Virus genome (UHGV): UHGV-0273073
DNA from: a virus
Strand: one strand, 5' to 3'
Length of the DNA stretch: 26,336 nucleotides
The notes beneath the pieces were generated by a model that saw only the letters and a list, made by a program, of their open reading frames with translations, was not told where the DNA came from and ran no database searches. The position numbers and the translations under genes were made by a program. Of the stretch, positions 1,572 to 21,348 are shown in pieces. Position 1 is the stretch's first letter. Each line of letters begins with the position of its first letter.

Positions 1572-1933
1572 GGTAATATTAAATCGGAACATTTACATCG
1601 CGGAATGTAAAATTTAAATAAAAAGGACTCTTCCATGAGCCAAAATTCCTGAAATCTTAAGGGTAAGATAAAAGGTCTTAATCAGAATGACACGTTTTAT
1701 TAATAAATAAAGCTATTCTTTCATTGCTGTGTTTTTCTTTACAAAAGTAATCCTTGCTATGGGTGGTTAATCATGCGTTAATGGTGTTCTGGTTTGTTAC
1801 AAATTTATCTGAAGCAGTCATTGTTATAATTTTATTATTTGTACCTCTTGAGATTTCCTTGTTGGTTTTTCTCTCTGATATTTTTTTTCGGACCATTCTG
1901 CCCAAGGGCTAATTTCTTCAAAAGGTAATAATT

Positions 1934-2146
1934 ATGTCTAACAAAATGACTGGTTTAGTGAAATGGTTTAACCCTGAAAAAGGTTTTGGTTTCATCACGC
2001 CGAAAGATGGCAGCAAAGATGTGTTTGTCCATTTCTCAGCAATTCAGAGCAACGATTTCAAAACATTAACTGAGAATCAGGAAGTTGAATTTGGTATTGA
2101 GAACGGACCTAAAGGTCCTGCCGCTGTTCATGTTGTGGCGCTTTGA
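1934..2146 (+). CDS. CspA-family cold-shock protein (CspI/CspB-like prophage paralog)
   Basis: 70 aa, [14 protein letters not shown] and [11 protein letters not shown] motifs; preceded by a long AT-rich leader (1572..1933). Confidence 0.95.
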
Positions 2147-2345
2147 GGTAGACAATATTACAAACCATATTCACTTTAGATGCCCGTGTTGTCATGGTTC
2201 CCAGTATAGAACATCATCTTTTGATGTTTCTGACATGAATCCTTTCGGGGCAAAATGTATCTTTTGTAAATCAATGATGATTACATTTGATAATATTTCA
2301 CAATACTTAAATGCCAGCCGTCTGTCGTTGGATTTAAAAAAGTGA
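2130..2345 (+). CDS. Possible small zinc-ribbon protein (CPCC…C..C), start uncertain
   Basis: ORF track 2085..2345; internal Met at 2130; Cys pattern FRCPCCHG…AKCIFCK; immediately followed by an intrinsic terminator. Confidence 0.3.
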
Positions 2346-10190: not shown

Positions 10191-10466
10191 ATGTCTGTAT
10201 ATACAACTGCAGAATTACTGGCATCGACCCAGCATCACTTTAAGTTCGATCCGCTGTTTCTGCGCCTGTTTTTCCGTGAAACCTATCCTTTCACCACGGA
10301 AAAAGTCTATCTCTCACAAATTCCGGGACTGGTAAACATGGCGCTGTACGTTTCGCCGATTGTTTCCGGTGAGGTTATCCGATCCCGTGGCGGCTCCACC
10401 TCTGAATTTACGCCGGGTTATGTCAAACCCAAGCACTTAGCATGGCTTTCTGAGGCTTTCGTGTAG
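10191..10466 (+). pseudogene. E: Major capsid protein E, 5' fragment: codons 1-82 (10191..10436) fused to 9 island-encoded codons then stop
   Basis: MSVYTTAELLASTQHHFKFDPLFLRLFFRETYPFTTEKVYLSQIPGLVNMALYVSPIVSGEVIRSRGGSTSEFTPGYVKPKH is lambda gpE N-terminus; homology ends exactly after His82, followed by LAWLSEAFV*. Confidence 0.92.
10426..10435. repeat. Left copy of 10-bp direct repeat AACCCAAGCA (putative attL core)
   Basis: Identical 10-mer at 20558..20567; both copies sit at the breakpoints of E homology. Confidence 0.8.
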
Positions 10467-10563
10467 TTGCTGGTTTTTACACTTAATCTTTTGATAATAA
10501 AGAATAAGTTTATCTGGCGCTTTCACTGGATTTTCCTCGTTATCTGTGTGTTGCAATCATCTC

Positions 10564-10583
10564 TGTATTGCAGCTTGTATTGC
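10564..10583. repeat. Arm-type direct repeats TGTATTGCA / TGTATTGC at 12-bp phasing (left arm, between attL core and int)
   Basis: The same 9-mer occurs three times at 12-bp phasing on the right arm (20449..20481). Confidence 0.65.
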
Positions 10584-10598
10584 TTTTTGGGGCTAAAA

Positions 10599-11834
10599 AT
10601 GGCTGGCGAGAACAAACTGAGCGACAAAGCACTTAAAGGATATCTGGGGAAACCCAGAGAAAAGCAGATCACCATTGCTGATGGAAAGGGGCTTTCTATT
10701 CGTGTGAGTACCAAGGGGGCTGTGAGCTTTGTTTTCTTCTACAGGTTAGCAGGTGGCCGGGCTGCTCCGGTCTGGCTAACGTTGGGTAAATATCCTGATA
10801 TGTCACTCAAACAGGCAAGAGAAAAGCGCGACGAGTGCCGTGGTTGGTTGGCTGACAAACGTGATCCGCGTATCCAGATTAAGATTCAGGCTGAAGAACG
10901 CTTAAAGCCGGTCACAGTGGAGGATGCACTAAATTACTGGTATGAAAATTACTGTAAGGTGCGTCGTAAAACTCATGCTGTAACGCTTGGCAGATTTCGA
11001 AAGCATATCTTTCCCTATATCGGTCATTTGCCCGTAAATGACACTCACCTATATGAATGGCTGGACTGTTTTGACCGAATTAAACGTAATGCACCAGTTA
11101 TGGCGGCGTATGTTTTTTCTGACACTAAATTAGCTCTTCGTTTTTGTCGGGTACGCCAGTACGCGACGTGTGATGCTTTAAAGGATTTGCGCATGAGTGA
11201 TGTGGGGCAGATTGCAGGTAAGCGGGATCGGGTTCTGGATGAAGCCGAACTGGGCCAGCTCTGGAAGGCAATTTTTGTCGAGCCTGATTTAAAACTAATG
11301 TCTGAATACACGCGAAAAATGTTTGTGCTTTGTACAGTATTTGGATGTCGAATGAGTGAAGCCCGATTATCAGAATGGAGCGAATGGGATCTAGAAAGTT
11401 GGGTTTGGACTGTACCAAAAGAACACTCAAAAACCGGTGTTGAAATCGTCAGACCAGTACCTGAAATTCTACGACAGTGGGTAACGGATGTTCACGAAGA
11501 GACAAAACATACTGGTTATGTGCTGGGAAGTCTGCGAATTAGAGAAAGCGTAAGCAAGATTGGGGGGAAAATCGGTAAACGTTTGGGCCATGAAAAACAA
11601 TGGTCACTACACGACCTTAGAAGAACGCTATCTACTCATCTAAGTGATCTCGGTGTTGAATTTTATGTAGTAGAACAACTGTTAGGCCATGCGCTACCTG
11701 GCGTGGCAGGTGTTTACAACCGGAGTAAGTTTATGGCTAAAAAACTGGATGCTCTGGAACTCTGGACTACATATCTCAATAGCATCGCAGGTGCTGATTC
11801 AAAAGTGACAATCCTCAAACAAAAGGCTGGTTAA
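10599..11834 (+). CDS. int: Tyrosine site-specific integrase, P4 family (N-terminal arm-binding DUF4102-like domain)
   Basis: ATG at 10599 (MAGENKLSDKALKGYLGKP…); catalytic-region motifs HDLRRT and GVYNRSK (Tyr); the track's TTG-initiated extension 10467..10598 covers the arm repeats and is unlikely to be coding. Confidence 0.92.
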   Translation: MAGENKLSDKALKGYLGKPREKQITIADGKGLSIRVSTKGAVSFVFFYRLAGGRAAPVWLTLGKYPDMSLKQAREKRDECRGWLADKRDPRIQIKIQAEERLKPVTVEDALNYWYENYCKVRRKTHAVTLGRFRKHIFPYIGHLPVNDTHLYEWLDCFDRIKRNAPVMAAYVFSDTKLALRFCRVRQYATCDALKDLRMSDVGQIAGKRDRVLDEAELGQLWKAIFVEPDLKLMSEYTRKMFVLCTVFGCRMSEARLSEWSEWDLESWVWTVPKEHSKTGVEIVRPVPEILRQWVTDVHEETKHTGYVLGSLRIRESVSKIGGKIGKRLGHEKQWSLHDLRRTLSTHLSDLGVEFYVVEQLLGHALPGVAGVYNRSKFMAKKLDALELWTTYLNSIAGADSKVTILKQKAG

Positions 11835-11835
11835 C

Positions 11836-12066
11836 ATGAAAAAAATGGCAATTGTTGATAAAAAGGGTCTGGAGTACATTCCTAACATTGACCGAATGAT
11901 CCGTGAGAAAGAATGTCGGGAGCTAACCACTCTTGCGAACAGCACACGCTGGAAGCTGGAGAAGGAAGGAAAATTTCCTAAGCGGATCAAGATTGGTTCC
12001 ACTGCTGTTGCATATCGTCTTTCAGAAGTGCAGGCATGGATTCGAGGTGAGTGGGAAACAACTTAA
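11836..12066 (+). CDS. AlpA-family HTH regulator / excisionase-like protein
   Basis: 76 aa; core RELTTLANSTRWKLEKEGKFPKRIKIGSTAVAYRLSEVQAWI fits the AlpA/Xis pattern; directly downstream of int as in P4-like elements and PICIs. Confidence 0.75.
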   Translation: MKKMAIVDKKGLEYIPNIDRMIREKECRELTTLANSTRWKLEKEGKFPKRIKIGSTAVAYRLSEVQAWIRGEWETT

Positions 12067-12082
12067 CTATTAGGTGGGCATT

Positions 12083-12904
12083 GTGGCTATATTTCATTAT
12101 ACAGATCTTTTTGGTTTGAAAGGTATATTAGACTCTAATTCTTTATGGGCTACAAACATATATTTCTTAAATGATAAAGAGGAGTCTAACCATGGATGTG
12201 AATGCTTTCGAAATACAATTAAAATAGTTGATGACAATATCATTCCAAAAGATAAGAAAACTATTTTGCTCAAGTCTCTTGACATGTATGAGAAAGGGAG
12301 GTTACAAAAAGAAAAAGGGATTGATAAACATGTTTATAGCATCTCTTTTTGTAAGGAAAACGATAAGTTAAGTCAGTGGAGAGGTTACGGAAATAAACAG
12401 GGTGTTTGCATTGAGTTTGATGCGGATGAACTTGTGAGCTTTTCTCAAAATATTTATTTAAATTGTGTTGCACATGATGTTATATATTCAAATAATAACG
12501 ATGTTACTAAGATGAGTAAGGAGTTGGGGGCGTTTTTTTCTTGTAATGGTATTAATATTAAAGAAAAGAATGATCATTTTGTAACAATGGCCTCTACGTA
12601 TCAATTTATATCTAAATACATCCCATTTTTTAAACATCCTAGTTTTATCGAAGAAAATGAATTTAGATTGGTATTTACTCCGCGCATACTAATACCAGAT
12701 GTGCAATTCAGAATAAATAATAATGGTGTCATCCCTTATATCATCATTGGTAATAAAGATCATAGGAAGTTACCAATTAAAAGTATTACTATTGGCCCGA
12801 CAAACGATTATGATTTCATTGAGGCTGGTATAAAAATGTTCTTGGATTCAAAAGGATTTAGTTCAGTGGAAATTAAATCCTCATCAATTCCATTCAGGGG
12901 GTAA
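12083..12904 (+). CDS. Cargo protein of unknown function, AT-rich (possibly DUF2971-like)
   Basis: ORF track 12074..12904; GTG at 12083 preceded by AGGTGG; codon usage and AT content clearly differ from flanking genes; motifs IYFLNDKEE and YSISFCKENDKLSQWRGYGNKQGVCIEF. Confidence 0.7.
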   Translation: MAIFHYTDLFGLKGILDSNSLWATNIYFLNDKEESNHGCECFRNTIKIVDDNIIPKDKKTILLKSLDMYEKGRLQKEKGIDKHVYSISFCKENDKLSQWRGYGNKQGVCIEFDADELVSFSQNIYLNCVAHDVIYSNNNDVTKMSKELGAFFSCNGINIKEKNDHFVTMASTYQFISKYIPFFKHPSFIEENEFRLVFTPRILIPDVQFRINNNGVIPYIIIGNKDHRKLPIKSITIGPTNDYDFIEAGIKMFLDSKGFSSVEIKSSSIPFRG

Positions 12905-12949
12905 GGATTAACACTTTTAATCTATGATGTTATAAAAATGGTGGATAAA

Positions 12950-12969
12950 GGCGACCAGAATTGGTCGCC
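12950..12969. terminator. Hairpin between convergent cargo genes (possible bidirectional terminator)
   Basis: GGCGACCA-GAAT-TGGTCGCC, 8-bp perfect stem. Confidence 0.45.
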
Positions 12970-13035
12970 AATGTGAGTATATAGTTAGCCTTAATCAGAA
13001 TACGAGGTTGTCGACTGATAGGCAATGTGAACAGT

Positions 13036-13392
13036 TCAATATTTAGGTGGTTCAACAAGAGCGTTTATCATTGCTCTCAAATTATCGCGAACACTTATCC
13101 AAGTCTGTTCTGCTCGTTCTAACTCATCAGTGTACAACTTTAATGTTTTATCTATGCCATATGTGGCTATTAAATTTATAGCTTCTTGTAACTTTTCGGG
13201 ATTATTCCTTCTTGGGGGAGTGAATATACCACGGATTTTTCCGGTAATTAAAGCTTTACGGTGTCTACATAGAATACCTTTACTTCCTGCTGGACAATTG
13301 CAAGTCATGATTAGCGAGCCAGAATCGTTTGATACAGTGACTATGTATACATCCAAACTACTGCTACTTGTTGCGAAGAATTCGTATTTCAT
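13036..13392 (-). CDS. Small SWIM-type zinc-finger protein (CxC-x8-CxH)
   Basis: 118 aa; TCNCPAGSKGILCRHRKAL; strong AAGGAG Shine-Dalgarno 7 nt upstream of the ATG on the minus strand. Confidence 0.7.
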   Translation of the reverse strand: MKYEFFATSSSSLDVYIVTVSNDSGSLIMTCNCPAGSKGILCRHRKALITGKIRGIFTPPRRNNPEKLQEAINLIATYGIDKTLKLYTDELERAEQTWISVRDNLRAMINALVEPPKY

Positions 13393-13419
13393 GTGTTAGC
13401 TCCTTGACTTCAATTACTC

Positions 13420-13551
13420 TTATCCTTTTGGTTCAATACCGCGCCGTAGCAGCTCTTTGCGCCCTAATTCTTTAAGCCAGTTGGCTAGGCTTATGCCGTC
13501 GCTCTGCGCTTCTTTGTCGAATTGCTCTTTTAGCTCTGGAGAAATTCGCAT
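13420..13551 (-). CDS. Ribbon-helix-helix (CopG/Arc-like) protein, start uncertain
   Basis: MRISPELKEQFDKEAQSDGISLANWLKELGRKELLRRGIEPKG, C-terminal part of track ORF 13420..13734; 27 nt upstream of the SWIM gene on the same strand. Confidence 0.55.
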   Translation of the reverse strand: MRISPELKEQFDKEAQSDGISLANWLKELGRKELLRRGIEPKG

Positions 13552-13946
13552 TCTGAATTGTGGAGATTGCCCATCACCCTTAGGACTTTTATCGCGTTTG
13601 ATTGTTGACAAGTGACCACCTATTGAATTAGCCTTTTTACTGTTAGGTGACCACCTTAACACGGAGGCACTTAAAAAAGCAAAGCCCGAAGGCGCTAGGA
13701 ACACCAACGGGCTTCTAACCACCAACGATAGCAACAGTATCGAGATAGCTATGAGAAATCATACCACACACCCGCAAGGGCGGGACCCGCACAACCTGAA
13801 TAAATACATCTGGCGTTTTATCGCCCTGAGCACCGCACAACCACGCGTAATACACATCGAGGCCGCCAGCGGACAGGAAGCCCGCCAACAATCCCCAACT
13901 GGCTGCGTGATGATATTCGCCGCCCGTATTCGTCAGGAGGTATGCC

Positions 13947-14132
13947 GTGCTTAAAACCTTCCGTGTATTTGCTCGTGCTGTTAACCCACGAGGCCACACA
14001 ATTGGTATCGCTCAGAACGTGAAGGCTGTTAATGTTCAGACGGCTATTGCTGCGGTGAGAAGCGAATCATCAGAATATGGCTTATCACAAGTCATTATTT
14101 CAGCAGTGTATGAATTAAAAGAGGTGCATTAA
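13947..14132 (+). CDS. Hypothetical small protein, first gene of the replication operon
   Basis: GTG start with perfect AGGAGG 6 nt upstream; stop overlaps the next start. Confidence 0.6.
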   Translation: MLKTFRVFARAVNPRGHTIGIAQNVKAVNVQTAIAAVRSESSEYGLSQVIISAVYELKEVH

Positions 14133-14323
14133 TGCAGGAAATCACATTACACGAAGCCGCTGAACGTGCGCACCAGACAGAGATTATTTGCCGCCTTCTT
14201 GAGGTATACCCTGATAAATTAAATGATGCTGATATATCCGCATTAGCTAGTCTTCTGGCAAGACTGTCAGGAAGTGTTGCACTGTGGTTAATTGATCAGA
14301 GGGTAGAACGTTATGGAGAATAA
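14132..14323 (+). CDS. Hypothetical small protein (operon member)
   Basis: Translationally coupled to flanking ORFs. Confidence 0.55.
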   Translation: MQEITLHEAAERAHQTEIICRLLEVYPDKLNDADISALASLLARLSGSVALWLIDQRVERYGE

Positions 14324-14555
14324 TAAACTTTCGCTTGCAGAGGTGTCGGAATCCATGAACAGTGCAATAAGCTATAATAATTCGGCAATTGAAATTGCAA
14401 ACTTGTGGTTTCAATTGCTGTCAAACAACGAAAGAGATGAATCAACGGCAAGACTTATATTTGCTATTTCTGAATTGCTGGATATTTCCACCAGCAAGAT
14501 AAACAAAGCATTAGAAAAAATTCACGAATTAAAACACCACACAAACGGAATTTAA
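14313..14555 (+). CDS. Hypothetical small protein (operon member)
   Basis: Overlaps the previous ORF; AT-rich. Confidence 0.5.
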   Translation: MENNKLSLAEVSESMNSAISYNNSAIEIANLWFQLLSNNERDESTARLIFAISELLDISTSKINKALEKIHELKHHTNGI

Positions 14556-14559
14556 TTAT

Positions 14560-14859
14560 ATGGGAATGAAAAATACTGGTGTTAATGCCAGCGGCCCCGC
14601 TCGACCTGAATTTATGAACGGCGATATTTACCGCGATAAATACGGCGGCACGGTAACGATTAAAGGCGTGGCAGAACGGCGCATCACTTACCGCCGTGAG
14701 GGGTATAGCTATGACTGCGTGATGCCTGTTTATCAGTTCCGGCGTGATTTTTCCCTGGTATATGCCGCACCCCGCAGTAAGCCCACCAGCAGGGAAAAAG
14801 CGCGGGGAAACATCCAGAAAATGAAAAGCATGATTAACGCATTCAGGGGCAAAAAATGA
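14560..14859 (+). CDS. Hypothetical protein upstream of primase (operon member)
   Basis: 99 aa; stop overlaps the primase ATG (ATGA at 14856). Confidence 0.6.
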   Translation: MGMKNTGVNASGPARPEFMNGDIYRDKYGGTVTIKGVAERRITYRREGYSYDCVMPVYQFRRDFSLVYAAPRSKPTSREKARGNIQKMKSMINAFRGKK

Positions 14860-16607
14860 AACTGGCACCGAACTTAAAAAAACAGCCACGCGACAGACTG
14901 ACAGAGGTAATCATCTTTGCAGGTAGTGATGCGTGGAGCCATGCGAAAGAGTGGCAGGAATGGGCGGGTAAACATATTGCCGCCGACGATGTGCCGCCTG
15001 TCGTGCTGGCTGATGAGCAACTGAAAAACATCACCGATTACCGGATCATTGATGAAGATCGTCAGTGTGTGCGTGTTTACCGCGCAGGACATATCACAGA
15101 GCACAGCATGACGCAGATTGTTACGTTACTGGCTGTGGCTGGAGTGAAGACCGTACACGAATACGCGGGGATTACTGACACCAGCCCCGTGGATTTATCC
15201 GACCAGTTGCCGCGACTCAAAGAGGAATGCGAGCGTGGGGAAAGCCTGGTGCTTAATCTTCCGACGAAGCAAAAGGAGCAACTTTCACAGATGGCAGACA
15301 GTGAGCGGGCACAACTACTTGCCGATCGCTTTGATGGTGTTTGTGTTCATGCAGAAAGTGAAATCGTCCACGTATGGCGCGGCGGGGTATGGTGTCCGGT
15401 CAGCACAATGGAGCTGAGCCGCGAAATGGTGGCGATCTATTCAGAGCACAGGGCCACGTTCAGCAAACGCGTAATCAATAACGCCGTGGAAGCGTTAAAA
15501 GTTATTGCCGCCCCCATGGGGGAGCCGTCCGGTGATTTGCTACCGTTCACTAATGGTGTGCTTAATCTGAAAACGGGGGAATTTTCTCCGCACTCGCCGG
15601 AGCACTGGAGCACCACGCACAATGGTATTGAGTACACGCCACCAGTAGCAGGGGAAAACATCCGCGATAATGCGCCAAATTTCCATAAATGGCTTGAACA
15701 TGCTGCAGGAAAAGACCCGCGCAAGATGATGCGTATATGTGCCGCGTTATACATGATTATGGCGAACCGCTACGACTGGCAGATGTTCATTGAGGCCACC
15801 GGAGACGGGGGAAGCGGTAAGAGTACATTTACCCATATTGCCACCCTGCTTGCAGGCAAACAGAACACCGTAAGCGCAGAGATGACATCACTCGATGATG
15901 CAGGAGGGCGCGCGCAGGTTGTCGTGAGTCGTCTTATCGTCCTTGCCGATCAGCCGAAATATACGGGGGAAGGCACGGGCATCAAGAAAATCACGGGAGG
16001 CGATCCCGTTGAAATCAATCCGAAATATGAGAAGCGATTCACGACGATAATAAGGGCGGTGGTACTGGCAACCAATAACGACCCGATGATCTTTACCGAA
16101 CGGGCCGGAGGTGTGTCACGCCGTCGGGTGATTTTCCGGTTCGACAACATTGTAAGGGAGGACGAAAAAGACAAGGAATTACCGGAAAAGATAGCGGCAG
16201 AAATCCCCGTAATTATCCGCCGCTTGCTGGCTAACTTTGCTGACCCTGAAAAGGCAAGGGCTTTACTACTGGAACAGCGTGACGGTGATGAAGCTCTGGC
16301 AATAAAGCAGCAAACGGATCCAGTTGTTGAGCTTTGCGCGGCGCTTGAGTTTCTGGATGAAGCTCGTGGGCTAATGATGGGCGGTGGTGGTGACTCCGTG
16401 AAGTACACGACCAGAAACAGCCTTTACCGTGTCTATATGGCCTTCATGGCATACACAGGAAAGGGGAAATGTTTGAGCGTGAATGAGTTCGGAAAGGCTA
16501 TGAGGTCAGCGGCGAAAGTTTACGGATATGAATATATTACGCGAAAAGTTAAGGGAGTCACGCAGACCAACGCAACGACTACTGATGATTGCGATGCGTT
16601 TTTATAA
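14856..16607 (+). CDS. Replication primase/helicase (P4-alpha/PICI pri-rep-like, P-loop NTPase)
   Basis: 583 aa; Walker A GDGGSGKST; Walker B-like VLADQ; immediately followed by the iteron array. Confidence 0.85.
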   Translation: MKLAPNLKKQPRDRLTEVIIFAGSDAWSHAKEWQEWAGKHIAADDVPPVVLADEQLKNITDYRIIDEDRQCVRVYRAGHITEHSMTQIVTLLAVAGVKTVHEYAGITDTSPVDLSDQLPRLKEECERGESLVLNLPTKQKEQLSQMADSERAQLLADRFDGVCVHAESEIVHVWRGGVWCPVSTMELSREMVAIYSEHRATFSKRVINNAVEALKVIAAPMGEPSGDLLPFTNGVLNLKTGEFSPHSPEHWSTTHNGIEYTPPVAGENIRDNAPNFHKWLEHAAGKDPRKMMRICAALYMIMANRYDWQMFIEATGDGGSGKSTFTHIATLLAGKQNTVSAEMTSLDDAGGRAQVVVSRLIVLADQPKYTGEGTGIKKITGGDPVEINPKYEKRFTTIIRAVVLATNNDPMIFTERAGGVSRRRVIFRFDNIVREDEKDKELPEKIAAEIPVIIRRLLANFADPEKARALLLEQRDGDEALAIKQQTDPVVELCAALEFLDEARGLMMGGGGDSVKYTTRNSLYRVYMAFMAYTGKGKCLSVNEFGKAMRSAAKVYGYEYITRKVKGVTQTNATTTDDCDAFL

Positions 16608-16620
16608 AAAATGGCAATGG

Positions 16621-16850
16621 TTATCTACCTTGTCTACCTGACTGAAAGAAAATACTTTTATTTCAATGTATTAATGCAGGTAGATAACTATTTTTCACTG
16701 TCTACCTGTTATCTACCTTATCTACCCATTTTTGTAGACAGGTAAGGAGACGGGTAGAGATGAGGTAGACAGCTATTTGGGGCTGTCTACCTCCCTGAAA
16801 CCCGCGCCATTACTGGCCTGATAACTAATCAGGTAGACAAGGTAGACAAG
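16621..16850. repeat. Iteron-type replication origin: at least 12 copies of GTCTACC / GGTAGAC in both orientations plus an AT-rich spacer
   Basis: Copies at about 16623, 16632, 16678, 16701, 16711, 16720, 16734, 16753, 16764, 16785, 16831, 16841; AT-rich 16641..16676. Confidence 0.8.
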
Positions 16851-16896
16851 GTGGTGGTGCACAAAAAACTTTTTAAACGAGGGGGTAAAAATAAAA

Positions 16897-17154
16897 ATGC
16901 ACACATCAGGAAAACTGAACAAACATATAAAGCCACATTACCGCGCCCTTGATATGGCTGAACACTGGCTAAGGGTGGCGATTAAGGCAATAGACCGCAA
17001 CGCCGGGGAAGGATACGCGAAAGCACATCCCGAACTGATAAGCGCATTCATGACAACGGCGGCTGCAAACTTTGCCACGCTGACCGAACGGGAGATTGCC
17101 GAAGCGGAGGAAGTGACAACCATCAATATTAAGTCCGGAGAGCAGGCAGCATGA
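16897..17154 (+). CDS. Hypothetical 85-aa protein
   Basis: Stop overlaps the ssb start. Confidence 0.5.
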   Translation: MHTSGKLNKHIKPHYRALDMAEHWLRVAIKAIDRNAGEGYAKAHPELISAFMTTAAANFATLTEREIAEAEEVTTINIKSGEQAA

Positions 17155-17600
17155 CGGCGCAAATAGCAGCTTACGGGCGGCTGGTGGACGCCCCGCAGAC
17201 AAAACAGACCAGCAAGGGCACCCCCATGACGCTGGCGCGTATGGCGGTATCACTGCCCTGCAGCCAGTCGGATGACGGTCAGGCGACGATGTGGTTATCT
17301 GTTCTGGCGTTTGGCAGACAAGCCGACGCGCTGGCAAAGCATCACAAAGGCGAACTCCTGAGCGTGGCGGGTAACATGCAGGTGAGTCAGTGGACTGGAC
17401 AGAACGGTGAAACGCGGCAGGGCTGGCAGGTTATCGCAGACAGCGTAATCAGTGCGCGAACGGTGCGACCGGGCGGCAAAAAAGGCCAACAGGGGCAGGC
17501 TACTGACGCACTGAACAGAGCAAAACAACAGGCAGATCAGCAAGGAAGCCATCCACCAGTGGGAGATAATGAGCAATGGGGAGATGATATTCCGTTTTAA
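17151..17600 (+). CDS. ssb: Single-stranded DNA-binding protein
   Basis: 149 aa; OB-fold core and acidic C-terminal tail ending DDIPF, as in E. coli SSB. Confidence 0.9.
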   Translation: MTAQIAAYGRLVDAPQTKQTSKGTPMTLARMAVSLPCSQSDDGQATMWLSVLAFGRQADALAKHHKGELLSVAGNMQVSQWTGQNGETRQGWQVIADSVISARTVRPGGKKGQQGQATDALNRAKQQADQQGSHPPVGDNEQWGDDIPF

Positions 17601-17618
17601 ATATTGCCAATAAAAAAG

Positions 17619-17643
17619 GCCGGAAAAAAATAAATTTTCCGGC
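17619..17643 (+). other. Hairpin (9-bp stem GCCGGAAAA / TTTTCCGGC) between ssb and the capsid-homolog gene
   Basis: Perfect inverted repeat with 7-nt loop AAATAAA; no downstream T-run. Confidence 0.4.
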
Positions 17644-17817
17644 ATGCTACATAAATCCAGACCAAAGGGAGTGAAGATATTAACACTAATTATCCGCGCT
17701 GAAGTTGTCATCCCAAAACTTTATACAACATTGCACTCGGTTGCATGTATTCGCATGACAAATATCGGTGATAGCATATATCCACAATTATTTTTAATGA
17801 ATGCAAAGAGGATGCGT

Positions 17818-18858
17818 ATGGTTGATTTATATTCGCCTACCCAGCTTGTACAGGTGGTTAATGCTGTAGATGTACAAAAACAACTAAATGCGTTGTTTAC
17901 CAGTTTGTTTTTTACTCGCTCGGTAATGTTTGAATCGCGCGATATTATTCTTGATACAATCGACGATCCAAATATCCCAATTGCAGCGTTTTGTTCTCCT
18001 ATGGTGGGTAGTAAAGTTTCACGTGACGAAGGGTACGAATCAAAAACAATTCGTCCAGGCTATATGAAGCCGAAAAGCAGCATTGATCCAAATAAGTTAG
18101 CTGTGCGCCCTGCTGGTGTATCACCTGAGCAATACAATGCTTTTGGAGCGCGTAATATTAAAGTTAAACAGGCGATTGTAAATCAGGCTAAAGCTATTCG
18201 TGCACGTATTGAATGGCTTGCCGTTCAGGCAATCACAACGGGGAAAAATATCATTGAGGGCGATGGTATTGAACGTTATGAGCTGGACTGGAATATTAAA
18301 CCACAAAATATCATCACTCAGTCTGGCGGTGCTGAGTGGTCAGGTAAGGATAAAGAAACTTTTGATCCAAATGATGATATTGAGAGCTACGCAGAATTTA
18401 GTGAGGGCGTCACTAATATCATCATTATGGGCGGTAATGTATGGAAGAAATACCGTTCATTCAGAGCGATAAAAGAGGCTCTGGATACCCGTCGTGGTTC
18501 TAATTCCGAACTGGAAACGGCCCTTAAAGACCTTGGTGATTCGGTGAGTTTTAAAGGGTATATGGGCGATGTTGCGATTGTTGTATACAGCGGGCGTTAT
18601 ACCGACGAGGACGGAACTGAAAAACATTTCCTTGATCCTGATTTGATGGTGCTTGGCAATACGGCTCTTCAGGGGATTGTCGCCTATGGCGGTATTCAGG
18701 ATCCGGAGCTAATCCGAATGGGGCTGACTAAAGCCGAACTTGCACCGAAAAACTATATTGTGCCTGGTGATCCGGCTATTGAATATGTGCAGACACATTC
18801 AGCACCACAGCCAATACCGGCCCGCATCAATCGTTTTGTTACCGTTCGCATTGGCTAA
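17818..18858 (+). CDS. Island-encoded major capsid protein homolog (divergent gpE-like)
   Basis: 346 aa from ATG 17818 (AGAGG 6 nt upstream), inside track ORF 17644..18858. Blocks ITQSGGAEWSGKDKETFDPNDDIESYA and DTRRGSNSELETALKDLGDSVSFKGYMGDVAIVVYSG align with ITQSGGTEWSKRDKSTYDPTDDIEAYA and DTRRGSHSELETAVKDLGKAVSYKGMYGDVAIVVYSG of the resident E (20569..21348). Confidence 0.9.
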   Translation: MVDLYSPTQLVQVVNAVDVQKQLNALFTSLFFTRSVMFESRDIILDTIDDPNIPIAAFCSPMVGSKVSRDEGYESKTIRPGYMKPKSSIDPNKLAVRPAGVSPEQYNAFGARNIKVKQAIVNQAKAIRARIEWLAVQAITTGKNIIEGDGIERYELDWNIKPQNIITQSGGAEWSGKDKETFDPNDDIESYAEFSEGVTNIIIMGGNVWKKYRSFRAIKEALDTRRGSNSELETALKDLGDSVSFKGYMGDVAIVVYSGRYTDEDGTEKHFLDPDLMVLGNTALQGIVAYGGIQDPELIRMGLTKAELAPKNYIVPGDPAIEYVQTHSAPQPIPARINRFVTVRIG

Positions 18859-18867
18859 GGGGGAGCA

Positions 18868-19209
18868 ATGGCTACTCATTACACTGAACTCATGGCTGGC
18901 ACTGAAGCACTGGTGACTACGCTGGGGATATTTTCAGCTAATAAAGGGGTAATTCCTGCATTTACGCCACTGATGCAGGAAGATGCAACAGGTGCACTGG
19001 TGGTATGGGATGGTTCGAGCGTAGGTAAAGCGGTTTATGTTTCCGCTGTACAAATCGACACCGCGAAAAAAACACAGGCTCAGGTCTATAAGACAGGTGT
19101 CTTAAATGTTGATGCTCTGAACTGGCCTGAGTCTGTAAAAGAACTGTCAGTAAAGATTGCAGCGTTTGTTGGCTCAGGTATTTCTGTTCAGCCGCTGGCT
19201 CGTGTGTAA
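18868..19209 (+). CDS. Island-encoded head decoration protein homolog (divergent gpD-like)
   Basis: 113 aa; TPLMQEDATGALVVWDGSS…YKTGVLNVDALNWPES…AAFVGSGISV aligns with resident [20 protein letters not shown]…[16 protein letters not shown]…[11 protein letters not shown]. Confidence 0.8.
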   Translation: MATHYTELMAGTEALVTTLGIFSANKGVIPAFTPLMQEDATGALVVWDGSSVGKAVYVSAVQIDTAKKTQAQVYKTGVLNVDALNWPESVKELSVKIAAFVGSGISVQPLARV

Positions 19210-19220
19210 AGGGGGATACA

Positions 19221-19604
19221 ATGCAAAATGATTACAATGACCTTAAGCCAATTGCCGAAATGATGTACCCGAATCCAGCTGTAGAGGAATTAAAAGCTAT
19301 CGCTGACAAAATGTGTTTAAGCGAGCGCCTTGTTGATATGAATCAGGTGATGGAAATTACAACCCTGAGTCGGCGTACACTGCTAAACCTTGAGGCTAGT
19401 GGAGAGTTCCCGGAGCGTGTGCAGGTTACGGAAGGGCGTAAGGCCTGGTATTTAAGTGAAGTGATCGACTGGATAAATAATATTCCTCGCGCTTCTGAAT
19501 ATTGCCGCGTACCTGTCCCAAAAAAGCCAGATGCGGCGCTATGCCTCAAGATTGAGCGTGTACGCCGCAATGCACGGGATGGTCGCTATAAGCTGATTGG
19601 TTGA
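19221..19604 (+). CDS. HTH protein (AlpA/excisionase-like fold with N-terminal extension) adjacent to the cos-like site
   Basis: 127 aa; MNQVMEITTLSRRTLLNLEASGEFPERVQVTEGRKAWYLSEVIDWI. Confidence 0.6.
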   Translation: MQNDYNDLKPIAEMMYPNPAVEELKAIADKMCLSERLVDMNQVMEITTLSRRTLLNLEASGEFPERVQVTEGRKAWYLSEVIDWINNIPRASEYCRVPVPKKPDAALCLKIERVRRNARDGRYKLIG

Positions 19605-19629
19605 TGAAATTAGGGCCCGCTCTGGCTGG

Positions 19630-19838
19630 CGGGTCCTTTCCGGCGATCTGACAGGCTACGGGGCGTCAGGCGCGCGGATTTTCGCTATTTATGAAAATTT
19701 TCCGGTTTAAGGCGTTTCCGTTCTTCTTCGTCGTAACTTAATGTTTTTATTTAAAATACCCCCTGAAAAGAAAGGAAACGACAGGTGCTGAAAGCGAGCT
19801 TTTTGGCCTCTGTCGTTTCCTTTCTCGTTTTTTGTTCA
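19630..19838 (+). promoter_or_regulatory. Island cos-like packaging site: cosQ/cosB nearly identical to the prophage cos (4016..4223), divergent cosN-equivalent 12-mer GGGCGTCAGGCG at 19661..19672
   Basis: By-eye alignment: about 150 bp of the cosB arm differ by only a few substitutions; the cosN 12-mer differs at 5 of 12 positions; no terminase genes in the island. Confidence 0.85.
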
Positions 19839-20185
19839 ACAATTGCGCGGTAGCAACTCGCCTTTCTGCTGCTGGAACTTATCCGGCACGTTTCCAGTGA
19901 TATCTGTCAGACAGCAGGCAAACAGGAGACAACGCAGTCGGACAGCACGACCGCTGAAAATTACGCGCGTGTGGTGCTTGAGGTTATGCGCCGTGACGGT
20001 ATCGAGCTTAACGGCGTGGATATGTGCAACATACGCACCAGAGTTCTGGAGTTGTTGCCATATCGTCGCCGTTCCATGTAGCGAAGGGAGAGCGCGAAAA
20101 ACACTTACCAGTGGAAGAAGCAGGAGCGGTTACGGCGGTAACTTGCTGATATTCCCGATAACGCAAAATTGCGTTGGCTGGCAGA

Positions 20186-20404
20186 GTGCAAATTTGCACG
20201 ATGGTCTAACCCATTGATTCTTTCGAAAATCACCATTGGGGGATAACGGGGGAATAAGCCTAACCCATTGATTCTTCCACAATCCTCAATTTGAGGAGAG
20301 CGGAATTATTACATGGCTGGATCAGGACTCCTTGAATTCAAGGAGTTCTCCTGTGTGAAAATGAAATTACCCAAGTTGGTGGGTGAGTTGCAGATCTGCA
20401 ACTC
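20186..20404. promoter_or_regulatory. Cluster of four palindromes in the island right arm: 20186..20199, 20284..20296, 20328..20345, 20385..20404
   Basis: GTGCAAATTTGCAC (14 bp, perfect), CCTCAATTTGAGG (imperfect), CTCCTTGAATTCAAGGAG (18 bp, perfect), GAGTTGCAGATCTGCAACTC (20 bp, perfect). Confidence 0.6.
20206..20276. repeat. Two copies of the 17-mer CTAACCCATTGATTCTT (20206..20222, 20260..20276), resembling the att core (AACCCA…)
   Basis: Exact direct repeat; shares AACCCA with the core AACCCAAGCA. Confidence 0.6.
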
Positions 20405-20448
20405 GGCTATGAAACTTAATAATCGAACAGCATGTAAATTCATTTCTG

Positions 20449-20481
20449 TGTATTGCAGCATGTATTGCAGCATGTATTGCA
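20449..20481. repeat. Three phased copies of TGTATTGCA (12-bp period), right-arm arm-type sites
   Basis: 20449, 20461, 20473; the same motif occurs twice on the left arm (10564..10583). Confidence 0.65.
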
Positions 20482-20557
20482 ACATAGTCATTCTGGTAGA
20501 GATTATGCTCTATTTTTCCTCTTATATCATTCACATACTTACGTCATTGACTCATGT

Positions 20558-20567
20558 AACCCAAGCA
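20558..20567. repeat. Right copy of 10-bp direct repeat AACCCAAGCA (putative attR core)
   Basis: Identical to 10426..10435; E homology resumes 1 nt after it. Confidence 0.8.
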
Positions 20568-20568
20568 T

Positions 20569-21348
20569 GAGGTGAATCCGCAGATGACCCTGCGTCGCCT
20601 GCCGGATGAAGATCCGCAGAACCTGGCTGACCCGGCTTACCGTCGTCGCCGTATTATTCGGCAGAATATGCTGGATGAAAATCTGGCGATTGCCCAGGTC
20701 GAAGAGATGCAGGCAGTTTCTGCCGTGCTTAAGGGCAAATACACCATGACCGGTGAAGCCTTCGATCCGGTTGAGGTGGATATGGGCCGCAGTGCGGCGA
20801 ATAACATCACGCAGTCCGGCGGCACAGAGTGGAGCAAGCGTGACAAGTCCACGTATGACCCGACCGACGATATCGAAGCCTACGCGCTGAACGCCAGCGG
20901 TGTGGTGAATATCATCGTGTTTGATCCGAAAGGCTGGGCGCTGTTCCGTTCCTTCAAGGCCGTCAAGGAGAAGCTGGATACCCGTCGCGGCTCTCATTCC
21001 GAGCTGGAGACAGCGGTAAAAGACCTGGGCAAAGCGGTGTCTTATAAGGGAATGTATGGCGATGTGGCCATCGTCGTGTATTCCGGACAGTACGTGGAAA
21101 ACGGCGTCAAAAAGAACTTCCTGCCGGACAACACGATGGTGCTGGGGAACACTCAGGCACGCGGTCTGCGCACCTATGGTTGCATTCAGGATGCGGACGC
21201 ACAGCGCGAAGGCATTAACGCCTCTGCCCGTTACCCGAAAAACTGGGTGACCACCGGCGACCCGGCGCGTGAGTTCACCATGATTCAGTCAGCACCGCTG
21301 ATGCTGCTGGCTGACCCTGATGAGTTCGTGTCCGTTCAACTGGCGTAA
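20569..21348 (+). pseudogene. E: Major capsid protein E, 3' portion (codons 83-341), separated from its 5' part by the island
   Basis: Frame reads TAA-P-K-H-EVNPQMTLRRLPDEDPQNL… through the normal C-terminus …DPDEFVSVQLA; 82 + 259 residues = 341 as in lambda gpE; an in-frame TAA (20557..20559) lies just upstream. Confidence 0.92.

Follow-up and report, generated by a model that had tools for sequence, protein, structure and literature searches.

What is the function of the small gene pair, coding for a predicted ribbon-helix-helix (RHH) protein and a SWIM-type zinc finger protein, that runs leftward in the middle of a mobile island in the virus genome UHGV-0273073? The stretch of DNA analyzed here, 26,336 nucleotides (nt) in full and referred to below as the window, comes from an Escherichia coli lambdoid prophage whose major capsid gene is interrupted by an island of ~10 kb. 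A preliminary description of the pair had read it as an autoregulated regulator-effector pair and had named three possible roles: toxin-antitoxin-like, a defense module, or the island's repressor system. Comparison with homologous loci supports the autoregulated regulator and the repressor system well. The two genes probably constitute a leftward operon, with regulatory and cargo functions, in a helper-embedded phage-inducible chromosomal island (HE-PICI), in which RHH would limit its own synthesis and repress the early operon, and SWIM would be a co-transcribed passenger. As to a regulator-effector pair, the regulator is there, but RHH is often found alone or in front of unrelated genes, whereas SWIM belongs to a set of interchangeable cargos.

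The RHH gene had been placed at 13420..13551 on the minus strand. This open reading frame (ORF) is real, but the ATG at 13551 is internal. The true start is a TTG codon at 13611-13609, so the gene occupies 13420..13611 on the minus strand, with its stop codon ending at 13420, and codes for a predicted Arc-like repressor of 63, not 43, amino acids (aa). Homologues were collected from other E. coli islands and from 80 species-representative genomes of Enterobacterales, giving ~89 loci, 84 of them unique. The encoded proteins are 61 to 70 aa long (mostly 63 or 64), begin with MST(I)KRDK, and have ATG, TTG, or GTG at the same start position. In the RHH frame, differences between these loci and the window are distributed by codon position as 591/496/1353, which identifies the minus strand as the coding strand. 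In two islands, RefSeq leaves the true minus-strand gene unannotated and has a plus-strand feature over RHH instead: a pseudogene in the near-identical twin of the window (locus L001, 13522-13788, which corresponds to window 13421-13687) and, in O157:H7 (L003, 3058-3801), a “hypothetical protein” of 247 aa. This plus-strand ORF was rejected as a shadow ORF on the grounds of the codon-position bias, stop codons in every antisense frame in 43 of the 89 loci, and the lack of a Pfam match. The RefSeq annotation is thereby corrected from a plus-strand pseudogene or hypothetical protein to a minus-strand RHH gene.

The predicted fold of the RHH protein is Arc-like. Among the PHROGs, it matches phrog_228, “Arc-like repressor” (1.2e-6; PHROGs has no curated cutoff), and a profile of 27 RHH homologues finds Arc of phage P22 as its best match among the PDB sequences (E value, 0.0065). 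In the family profile, the PQFRMR segment of RHH aligns with PQFNLR of Arc, and Q18, R20, and R22 correspond to Arc Q9, N11, and R13, the residues through which Arc contacts DNA bases. The AlphaFold2 model of the 63-aa protein (predicted local distance difference test [pLDDT] score, 82) contains the β-strand and two helices of the RHH fold, with an extended segment at residues 18 to 24 followed by helices at 25 to 37 and 42 to 56. Foldseek searches with this model return Arc chains at the top (probability, 1.0; template modeling [TM] score, 0.89), followed by AmrZ, NikA, and CopG. As is typical of RHH proteins, predicted base-contacting residues alternate along the N-terminal strand, and two variable positions there co-vary with the operator core (see below). 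Thus, RHH shares with P22 Arc the fold, the best sequence and structure match, and a PQF-x-x-R β-strand motif. It differs from Arc in having 17 more N-terminal residues and a conserved C-terminal tail, RGIEPKG, which is kept regardless of the cargo gene. Further, Arc binds one 21-bp operator as a tetramer, whereas the RHH loci carry two separate dyads 30 to 35 bp apart. Finally, the RHH element is a satellite, not a phage, and the gene downstream is SWIM or other cargo, not Ant.

Two near-identical 11-mers upstream of RHH serve as its predicted operators. Both had been recognized in the preliminary description, which gave the proximal one at 13611-13621, where it is indeed found, and the second one at 13647-13657, whereas it actually lies at 13646-13656; the partial dyad suggested for them, of the GGTNACC type, is in fact GGTG-NN-CACC. 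The predicted proximal operator, O_P (13611..13621), reads AGTGACCACCT on the plus strand and AGGTGGTCACT on the minus strand. It lies within the spacer of the predicted rightward promoter and, with the RHH start corrected to the TTG at 13611-13609, directly abuts the start codon. The distal repeat, GGTGACCACCT on the plus strand, is located 35 bp from the proximal one, start to start. It belongs to the predicted distal operator, O_D (13645..13656), which reads AGGTGGTCACCT on the minus strand, contains the GGTG-NN-CACC dyad, and overlaps the −10 element of the predicted leftward promoter. With one mismatch allowed, the window contains 3 matches to the repeat pattern (0.36 expected), and only 1 of 100 shuffled sequences reached as many. 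The strongest evidence against chance is that the same two-site layout recurs in the ~89 homologous loci of Enterobacterales. Each of these has two dyads of 10 to 14 bp, one at the start codon and the other 30 to 35 bp upstream, with a locus-specific sequence.

This locus-specific sequence follows the predicted DNA-reading residues of RHH. Specifically, proteins with the β-strand QFRMR are found with the operator GGTG[AG][CT]CACC, those with QFKMR with GGTGGCCACC, PFHMR with GGTGTACACC, TFQIR with GGTACGTACC, MFNVR or LFNVR with GGTCTATAC, and QYQIR with TTGTAATTACAA. The central bases of the dyad co-vary with the residues aligned to Arc Gln9 and Asn11. A 4-nt operator core is common to 66% of the locus pairs that have the same key residues versus 0.3% of those with different ones, and the observed value was not reached in any of 2000 permutations; this statistic ignores the relatedness among loci, but there are still at least six residue classes with distinct operator cores. 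A third operator-like site, e.g., AGGTGATCAC or AGGTGCACAC, is seen in some loci (L035, L047, L032, and L015) ~21 bp upstream of the distal operator, between a conserved hairpin and the leftward −10 element; a weak version of it is present in the window.

Each of the two predicted operators overlaps a predicted promoter. The rightward promoter P_R (13605..13634, plus strand), which would serve the operon running from the Icd-like gene to the primase gene, consists of a −35 element TTGACA (13605-13610), an 18-nt spacer that includes O_P, and a −10 element TAGCCT (13629-13634). A perfect TTGACA lies opposite the RHH start in 78 of the 84 unique loci. In the same number of loci, the Ser2 codon of RHH is TCA, even though serine has six codons; it is this TCA that, in combination with the start codon before it and the base after it, spells TTGACA on the opposite strand. 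A TAnnnT sequence follows TTGACA by 16 to 19 nt, usually 18 nt, in 61 of 84 loci. The leftward promoter P_L (13653..13682, minus strand), predicted to drive the RHH-SWIM operon, has a −35 element TTGCTT (13682-13677), an extended −10 TG (13661-13660), and a −10 element TAAGGT (13658-13653). In 68 of 84 loci, compared to 6 of 84 in shuffled controls, the corresponding pattern, TGnTAnnnT, overlaps the distal operator at its left arm; the TG of the pattern is not part of the operator, because the proximal site has none. P_R and P_L would thus face each other, with starts ~10 bp apart. The first gene in the rightward direction in the window is the Icd-like gene (13751..13954, plus strand), recognized from the RefSeq annotation, phrog_6196, and the layout in related loci as the first gene of the divergent early/replication operon. 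In related loci, the first rightward gene is 130 to 145 nt away and encodes an Icd-like protein, a SymE-like protein, or another early-operon first gene product. At the opposite end, the RHH-SWIM operon would be closed by a terminator-like hairpin at 12945..12969 on the minus strand, with the stem GGCGACCA/TGGTCGCC followed by UUUAU (−15.2 kcal/mol; z-score, −6.1).

Just upstream of P_L, at 13673..13715, the minus strand could form a second RNA hairpin, also followed by a U-run, with a predicted energy of −22.8 kcal/mol compared to −13.1 kcal/mol for the plus strand. This hairpin has 12 to 15 bp, and compensatory changes preserve its structure in nearly all loci. In 81 of 82 loci, the RNA of the minus strand is more stable than that of the plus strand; G-U pairs, which on the opposite strand would be mismatched, account for 18% of its pairs. 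From this conservation and folding, the hairpin is likely the terminator of a leftward RNA that would be antisense to the ribosome-binding site and start codon of the Icd-like gene. An extended −10-like sequence, TGGTATGAT, is present on the minus strand at 13771-13763, and a leftward RNA could possibly reach to ~13771. An Rfam search of positions 12900-14200 at E values of up to 10 gave no match; an immunity RNA of the C4/IsrK type in front of the Icd-like gene had been expected.

Comparison of the loci separates RHH from the gene that follows it. Homology between the window and islands that lack SWIM (O157:H7 and SF-468) begins exactly at the RHH stop codon, at 13420. In other loci, RHH is followed by nothing, by SWIM, or by genes for a 128-aa membrane protein, an Hcp-like protein, a DUF4225 protein, a pentapeptide/ion-channel protein, a PemK-domain protein, or a methyl-directed restriction enzyme (PADLOC, 6.7e-43). 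Most loci have RHH without SWIM, and there is no stable co-occurrence of the two genes of the kind expected of a toxin-antitoxin pair. Conversely, SWIM relatives are paired with unrelated types of repressors. The GC content of SWIM is 0.37, as opposed to 0.46 for RHH and 0.45 for the island. Judged from these comparisons, SWIM is to be seen as AT-rich, interchangeable cargo and RHH as a backbone gene. In tblastn searches of the window proteins against 80 related loci, int was found in 26 and the primase in 10. A comparison of the largest flanking ORFs with Pfam identified P4-type integrases in 26 of 56 loci, on the cargo side, and primase-helicases in ~16 of 42, on the early side.

The SWIM gene (13036..13392, minus strand) was correctly described as coding for a 118-aa protein with a CxC-x8-CxH motif (C31-x-C33-x8-C42-x-H44), as following the RHH stop codon after 27 nt, and as having a strong AAGGAG ribosome-binding site; this Shine-Dalgarno sequence, read from the DNA, is at 13400..13405 on the minus strand, 7 nt before the ATG. 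The protein scores 24.1 bits against the Pfam domain PF04434, above the gathering score of 19.6, and matches phrog_13130 over its full length. Its likeness to PF04434 consists in the CxCxnCxH signature and this score above the curated threshold, with zinc binding being a prediction. It differs from other proteins with this domain in being a stand-alone protein of ~115 aa with a long C-terminal helix and not part of a large SNF2 helicase, transposase, or kinase. The AlphaFold2 model (pLDDT, 88; predicted TM score, 0.73) has three strands, two short helices that surround the zinc site, and two further helices, one at residues 65 to 77 and a long one at 80 to 113. SWIM is a genuine gene under purifying selection. 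Its 14 nucleotide differences from the copy in locus L002 are all synonymous, and the differences from a 69%-identical copy are distributed by codon position as 28/15/68.

Of 5426 complete E. coli genomes, 53 contain SWIM. Its close relatives form 8 clusters, all of them in PICIs of E. coli, Klebsiella, and relatives. A member of the RHH family is encoded directly upstream of SWIM in 6 of the 7 diverged loci compared, the window included. In the Klebsiella locus L009, RHH is replaced in front of SWIM by a DUF3950 gene (~60 aa) with its own two-site dyad. A profile search for more distant members yielded at least 187 cluster representatives of ~110 to 120 aa with full-length matches, and Tyr16, Cys31, Cys33, Cys42, and His44 are invariant across 38 members of the family. 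Seven distant relatives were looked up. Four of them are located in the operon of the prophage's own repressor, which is divergent from the early genes, either directly after the repressor or one gene further on; two of these repressors are of the CI type, one is of the S24 type, and one is of the HTH_3 type. A further relative is a moron in a P2-like prophage, and the context of another is uninformative. No conserved partner gene follows SWIM in the distant prophages, where the downstream genes encode unrelated membrane proteins, lipoproteins, or secreted proteins.

Together, these data suggest the following circuit. RHH dimers would bind O_P and O_D, each a dyad of 10 to 12 bp. On O_D, which covers the extended −10 element of P_L, RHH would limit its own transcription and that of SWIM; on O_P, in the spacer of P_R, it would keep the early/replication genes from the Icd-like gene to the primase gene turned off. 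SWIM would be co-transcribed with RHH, on a transcript that ends at the hairpin (12950-12969), and since this operon would be limited by RHH, SWIM production in the resident satellite would be low and self-limited. It might then act as a lysogenic-conversion factor that mediates superinfection exclusion or otherwise counteracts or modulates phages, with its zinc finger and long helix serving to bind a protein or nucleic acid. An exclusion or defense role is the leading guess for SWIM, by analogy, because its position mirrors that of exclusion genes in prophage repressor operons. The suggestion of a defense module is likewise possible, in view of this position next to repressor genes and a weak, partial PADLOC hit.

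Several observations, in addition to the relatedness that the co-variation statistic leaves aside, weigh against this reading. A simple consensus scan of positions 12900-13900 gave neither a σ70 promoter nor a terminator, so the calls made above rest on the conservation of the locus and on folding; the 12945..12969 hairpin escaped the scan because its T-run is short. In the window, the rightward −10 element (TAGCCT) and the leftward −35 element (TTGCTT) are both weak. RHH is not universal, as its place is taken in the island EcCICFT073 by another small regulator. With regard to SWIM, the homology and structure searches proposed in the preliminary description did place it above the Pfam threshold and in a family of its own, but its model found no informative match among solved structures, and the family profile returned only coiled-coil noise from the PDB sequences. 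No relative of SWIM was found among phage records. Its only PADLOC hit is to the candidate system PDC-S62 (E value, 4.9e-5; 20 bits), covers profile positions 54 to 138 of 566, and is thus not a full-length match to a defense model. In addition, the founding publication on these Gram-negative elements assigns control to the activator AlpA (PMC6092414), and RHH may only tune the locus.

An alternative restricts RHH to the autoregulation of the cargo operon; the early operon would be driven from elsewhere, e.g., in an AlpA-dependent manner, and the TTGACA over codons 1 to 3 of RHH would serve some other purpose. AlpA as an activator of PICI genes (PMC6092414), the weak rightward −10 element, and the empty consensus scan all speak for it. 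However, the use of TCA for Ser2 in 78 of 84 loci, which creates a TTGACA with TAnnnT 18 nt away, is hard to explain without a rightward promoter. Moreover, RHH and its operators are kept in loci without any cargo gene, where a regulator of the cargo alone would have nothing to regulate. We therefore regard this alternative as unlikely.

Another alternative takes the pair as similar to arc-ant. Arc is encoded by the first gene of that small operon, in the immI region of P22, and represses its own promoter, with an opposing promoter and a small antisense RNA alongside. SWIM would then be an antirepressor or another manipulator of the helper prophage that is held down by RHH and released upon induction. 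Arc is the closest solved relative of RHH, this zone of the PICIs is rich in proteins of the Bro/Ant/Rha type, and locus L006 encodes a BRO-N protein beside the pair. Furthermore, SWIM domains in other proteins mediate protein-protein contacts. Nevertheless, SWIM shows no similarity to known antirepressors. In distant prophages, it resides in the operon of the repressor itself, where one would hardly expect an antirepressor of that phage, and other cargos of the slot (the restriction enzyme, membrane proteins, and the PemK-domain protein) resemble exclusion or defense genes. On balance, such a role seems rather improbable.

The toxin-antitoxin-like interpretation, with RHH as a type II antitoxin and SWIM as the toxin, fares worse. 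It draws on the arrangement of a small DNA-binding protein gene and a second small gene separated by 27 nt, on the RefSeq names of some RHH homologues (“HicB family antitoxin”), and on the presence of RHH antitoxins lower among the structural matches. The score against the RHH part of Pfam HicB is 20.3, below the gathering score of 21, with profile positions 18 to 48 of 51 matched. There is no HicA gene next to RHH, as its neighbors, SWIM and the Icd-like gene, have no Pfam HicA match. The 63-aa RHH lacks the N-terminal HicB domain and shows no evident additional toxin-binding domain. Also, SWIM relatives follow genuine CI or S24 phage repressors, in one case with another gene in between. Such a pair is very unlikely because RHH has no fixed partner, being alone or in front of unrelated genes in most loci, no HicB features, and a tail that is conserved whatever follows. 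That the repeats are sites of another protein, such as AlpA, or mere chance matches is scarcely credible: AlpA is a known regulator of such islands and short two-copy repeats often arise by chance, but the site sequence tracks the β-strand residues of RHH across many genera, on which ground AlpA sites were rejected, and one copy is in every case immediately next to the RHH start codon.

The circuit preferred here, a self-limiting RHH repressor with a passenger gene, is of a known kind, namely, an Arc-type repressor with its operators and a repressor-linked cargo gene; a description of the role of RHH as a satellite repressor was not found in the literature searched. One parallel is the lambda cI-rexA-rexB operon, in which the exclusion genes rexA and rexB lie in the cI operon and are expressed in the resident state. 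As there, an accessory gene directly follows an immunity repressor, a place that SWIM relatives hold in several prophages; however, neither in sequence nor in fold does SWIM resemble RexA or RexB. With the Stl/Rpr repressors of the Staphylococcus aureus pathogenicity islands (SaPIs), which are Gram-positive PICIs, RHH shares a leftward regulatory gene opposed to a rightward excision/replication operon, with int on the repressor's side (PMC6092414), and, provided that the role proposed for RHH is right, the task of keeping the island quiet. In contrast to Stl/Rpr, RHH is an unrelated type of protein, and int and alpA run rightward here, not together with the repressor. A parallel in layout comes from EcCICFT073, the prototype Gram-negative PICI, which likewise contains int, alpA, a leftward small regulator gene and then a small gene, a conserved hairpin, and a set of genes from the Icd-like gene to the primase gene. 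It differs in that its 59-aa regulator belongs to the YlcI/YnfO family (L103, 9243-9870, E. coli CFT073) and that there is no SWIM gene. Direct repeats of its own accompany this regulator (AGGTGTGGCCCAC, two copies 21 bp apart), and the hairpin upstream is shared with the RHH loci. The next gene, coding for 57 aa, is of the type found behind RHH in O157:H7. The occurrence of YlcI/YnfO or RHH at the same place suggests that these are alternative “immunity” cassettes.

The island as a whole is a helper-embedded PICI that matches the published description of this group, including the division into the Integration, “Bro,” Replication, and Late zones (PMC10111431), and the RHH-SWIM module is within its variable “Bro” zone. 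The island (~10467 to 20570) is flanked by two fragments of the split capsid gene, at 10191-10466 and 20572-21348, identified as ORFs and annotated by RefSeq as partial capsid genes in L001. It is thus integrated inside a late gene of the prophage, and int, alpA, and the primase gene are co-oriented in the four-zone order, according to the ORFs and the RefSeq annotation. The left part of the island contains int, alpA, and a DUF2971 gene, all rightward; the middle contains SWIM and RHH, leftward; and the right part, again rightward, contains the Icd-like gene, several small ORFs, and genes for a DUF4222 protein, primase, SSB, capsid, decoration protein, a helix-turn-helix protein, and TerS. A satellite embedded in the helper capsid gene and carrying capsid and decoration genes of its own is a configuration that has already been published (PMC10111431). 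That paper mentions neither SWIM nor HicB, and its section on gene content describes no small RHH regulator; a description of the RHH gene was not found elsewhere in the literature searched either, where SWIM and HicB are likewise unmentioned.

Some features of the window lie outside the RHH-SWIM module. The DUF2971 gene (12074-12904, plus strand) comes directly after alpA, has a GC content of 0.31, and shows a weak PADLOC match to the candidate system PDC-S31. In sister islands, other genes are found here, coding for a hypothetical protein of 265 aa, a BRO-N protein, or a TIR-domain protein, which makes the position look like a second cargo slot. In L001, the closest relative of the island in RefSeq, an IS1 element is inserted in the primase gene, at 16057-16753, and there are more differences near the TerS end; unlike in L001, the primase gene of the window (14856-16607) is intact. 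In the prophage part, an Rfam match to the cspA thermoregulator (110 bits; 1788-2173, plus strand) precedes the prophage cold-shock gene cspI.

Whether a global repressor exists in Gram-negative PICIs has been considered unclear (PMC6092414). The comparisons described here make RHH a candidate for such a repressor, at least in a part of the family, and a concrete, testable one, because its predicted operators overlap the predicted promoter that faces the replication genes. A much broader view, in which RHH is the missing master repressor of Gram-negative PICIs and P4-like satellites, with “immunity types” defined by residue-operator pairs, a face-to-face promoter switch, and a leftward antisense RNA, and in which stand-alone SWIM proteins represent a new class of repressor-linked exclusion or defense genes, is speculative and more likely wrong than right. 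The natural residue-operator pairs predict mutations that would switch specificity: changing Q18/R20 to T/Q should move the preference from GGTGGTCACC to GGTACGTACC. The small SWIM proteins emerge as an uncharacterized family tied to prophage repressor operons, and the position right after the repressor stop codon is a cargo slot where new anti-phage genes may turn up.

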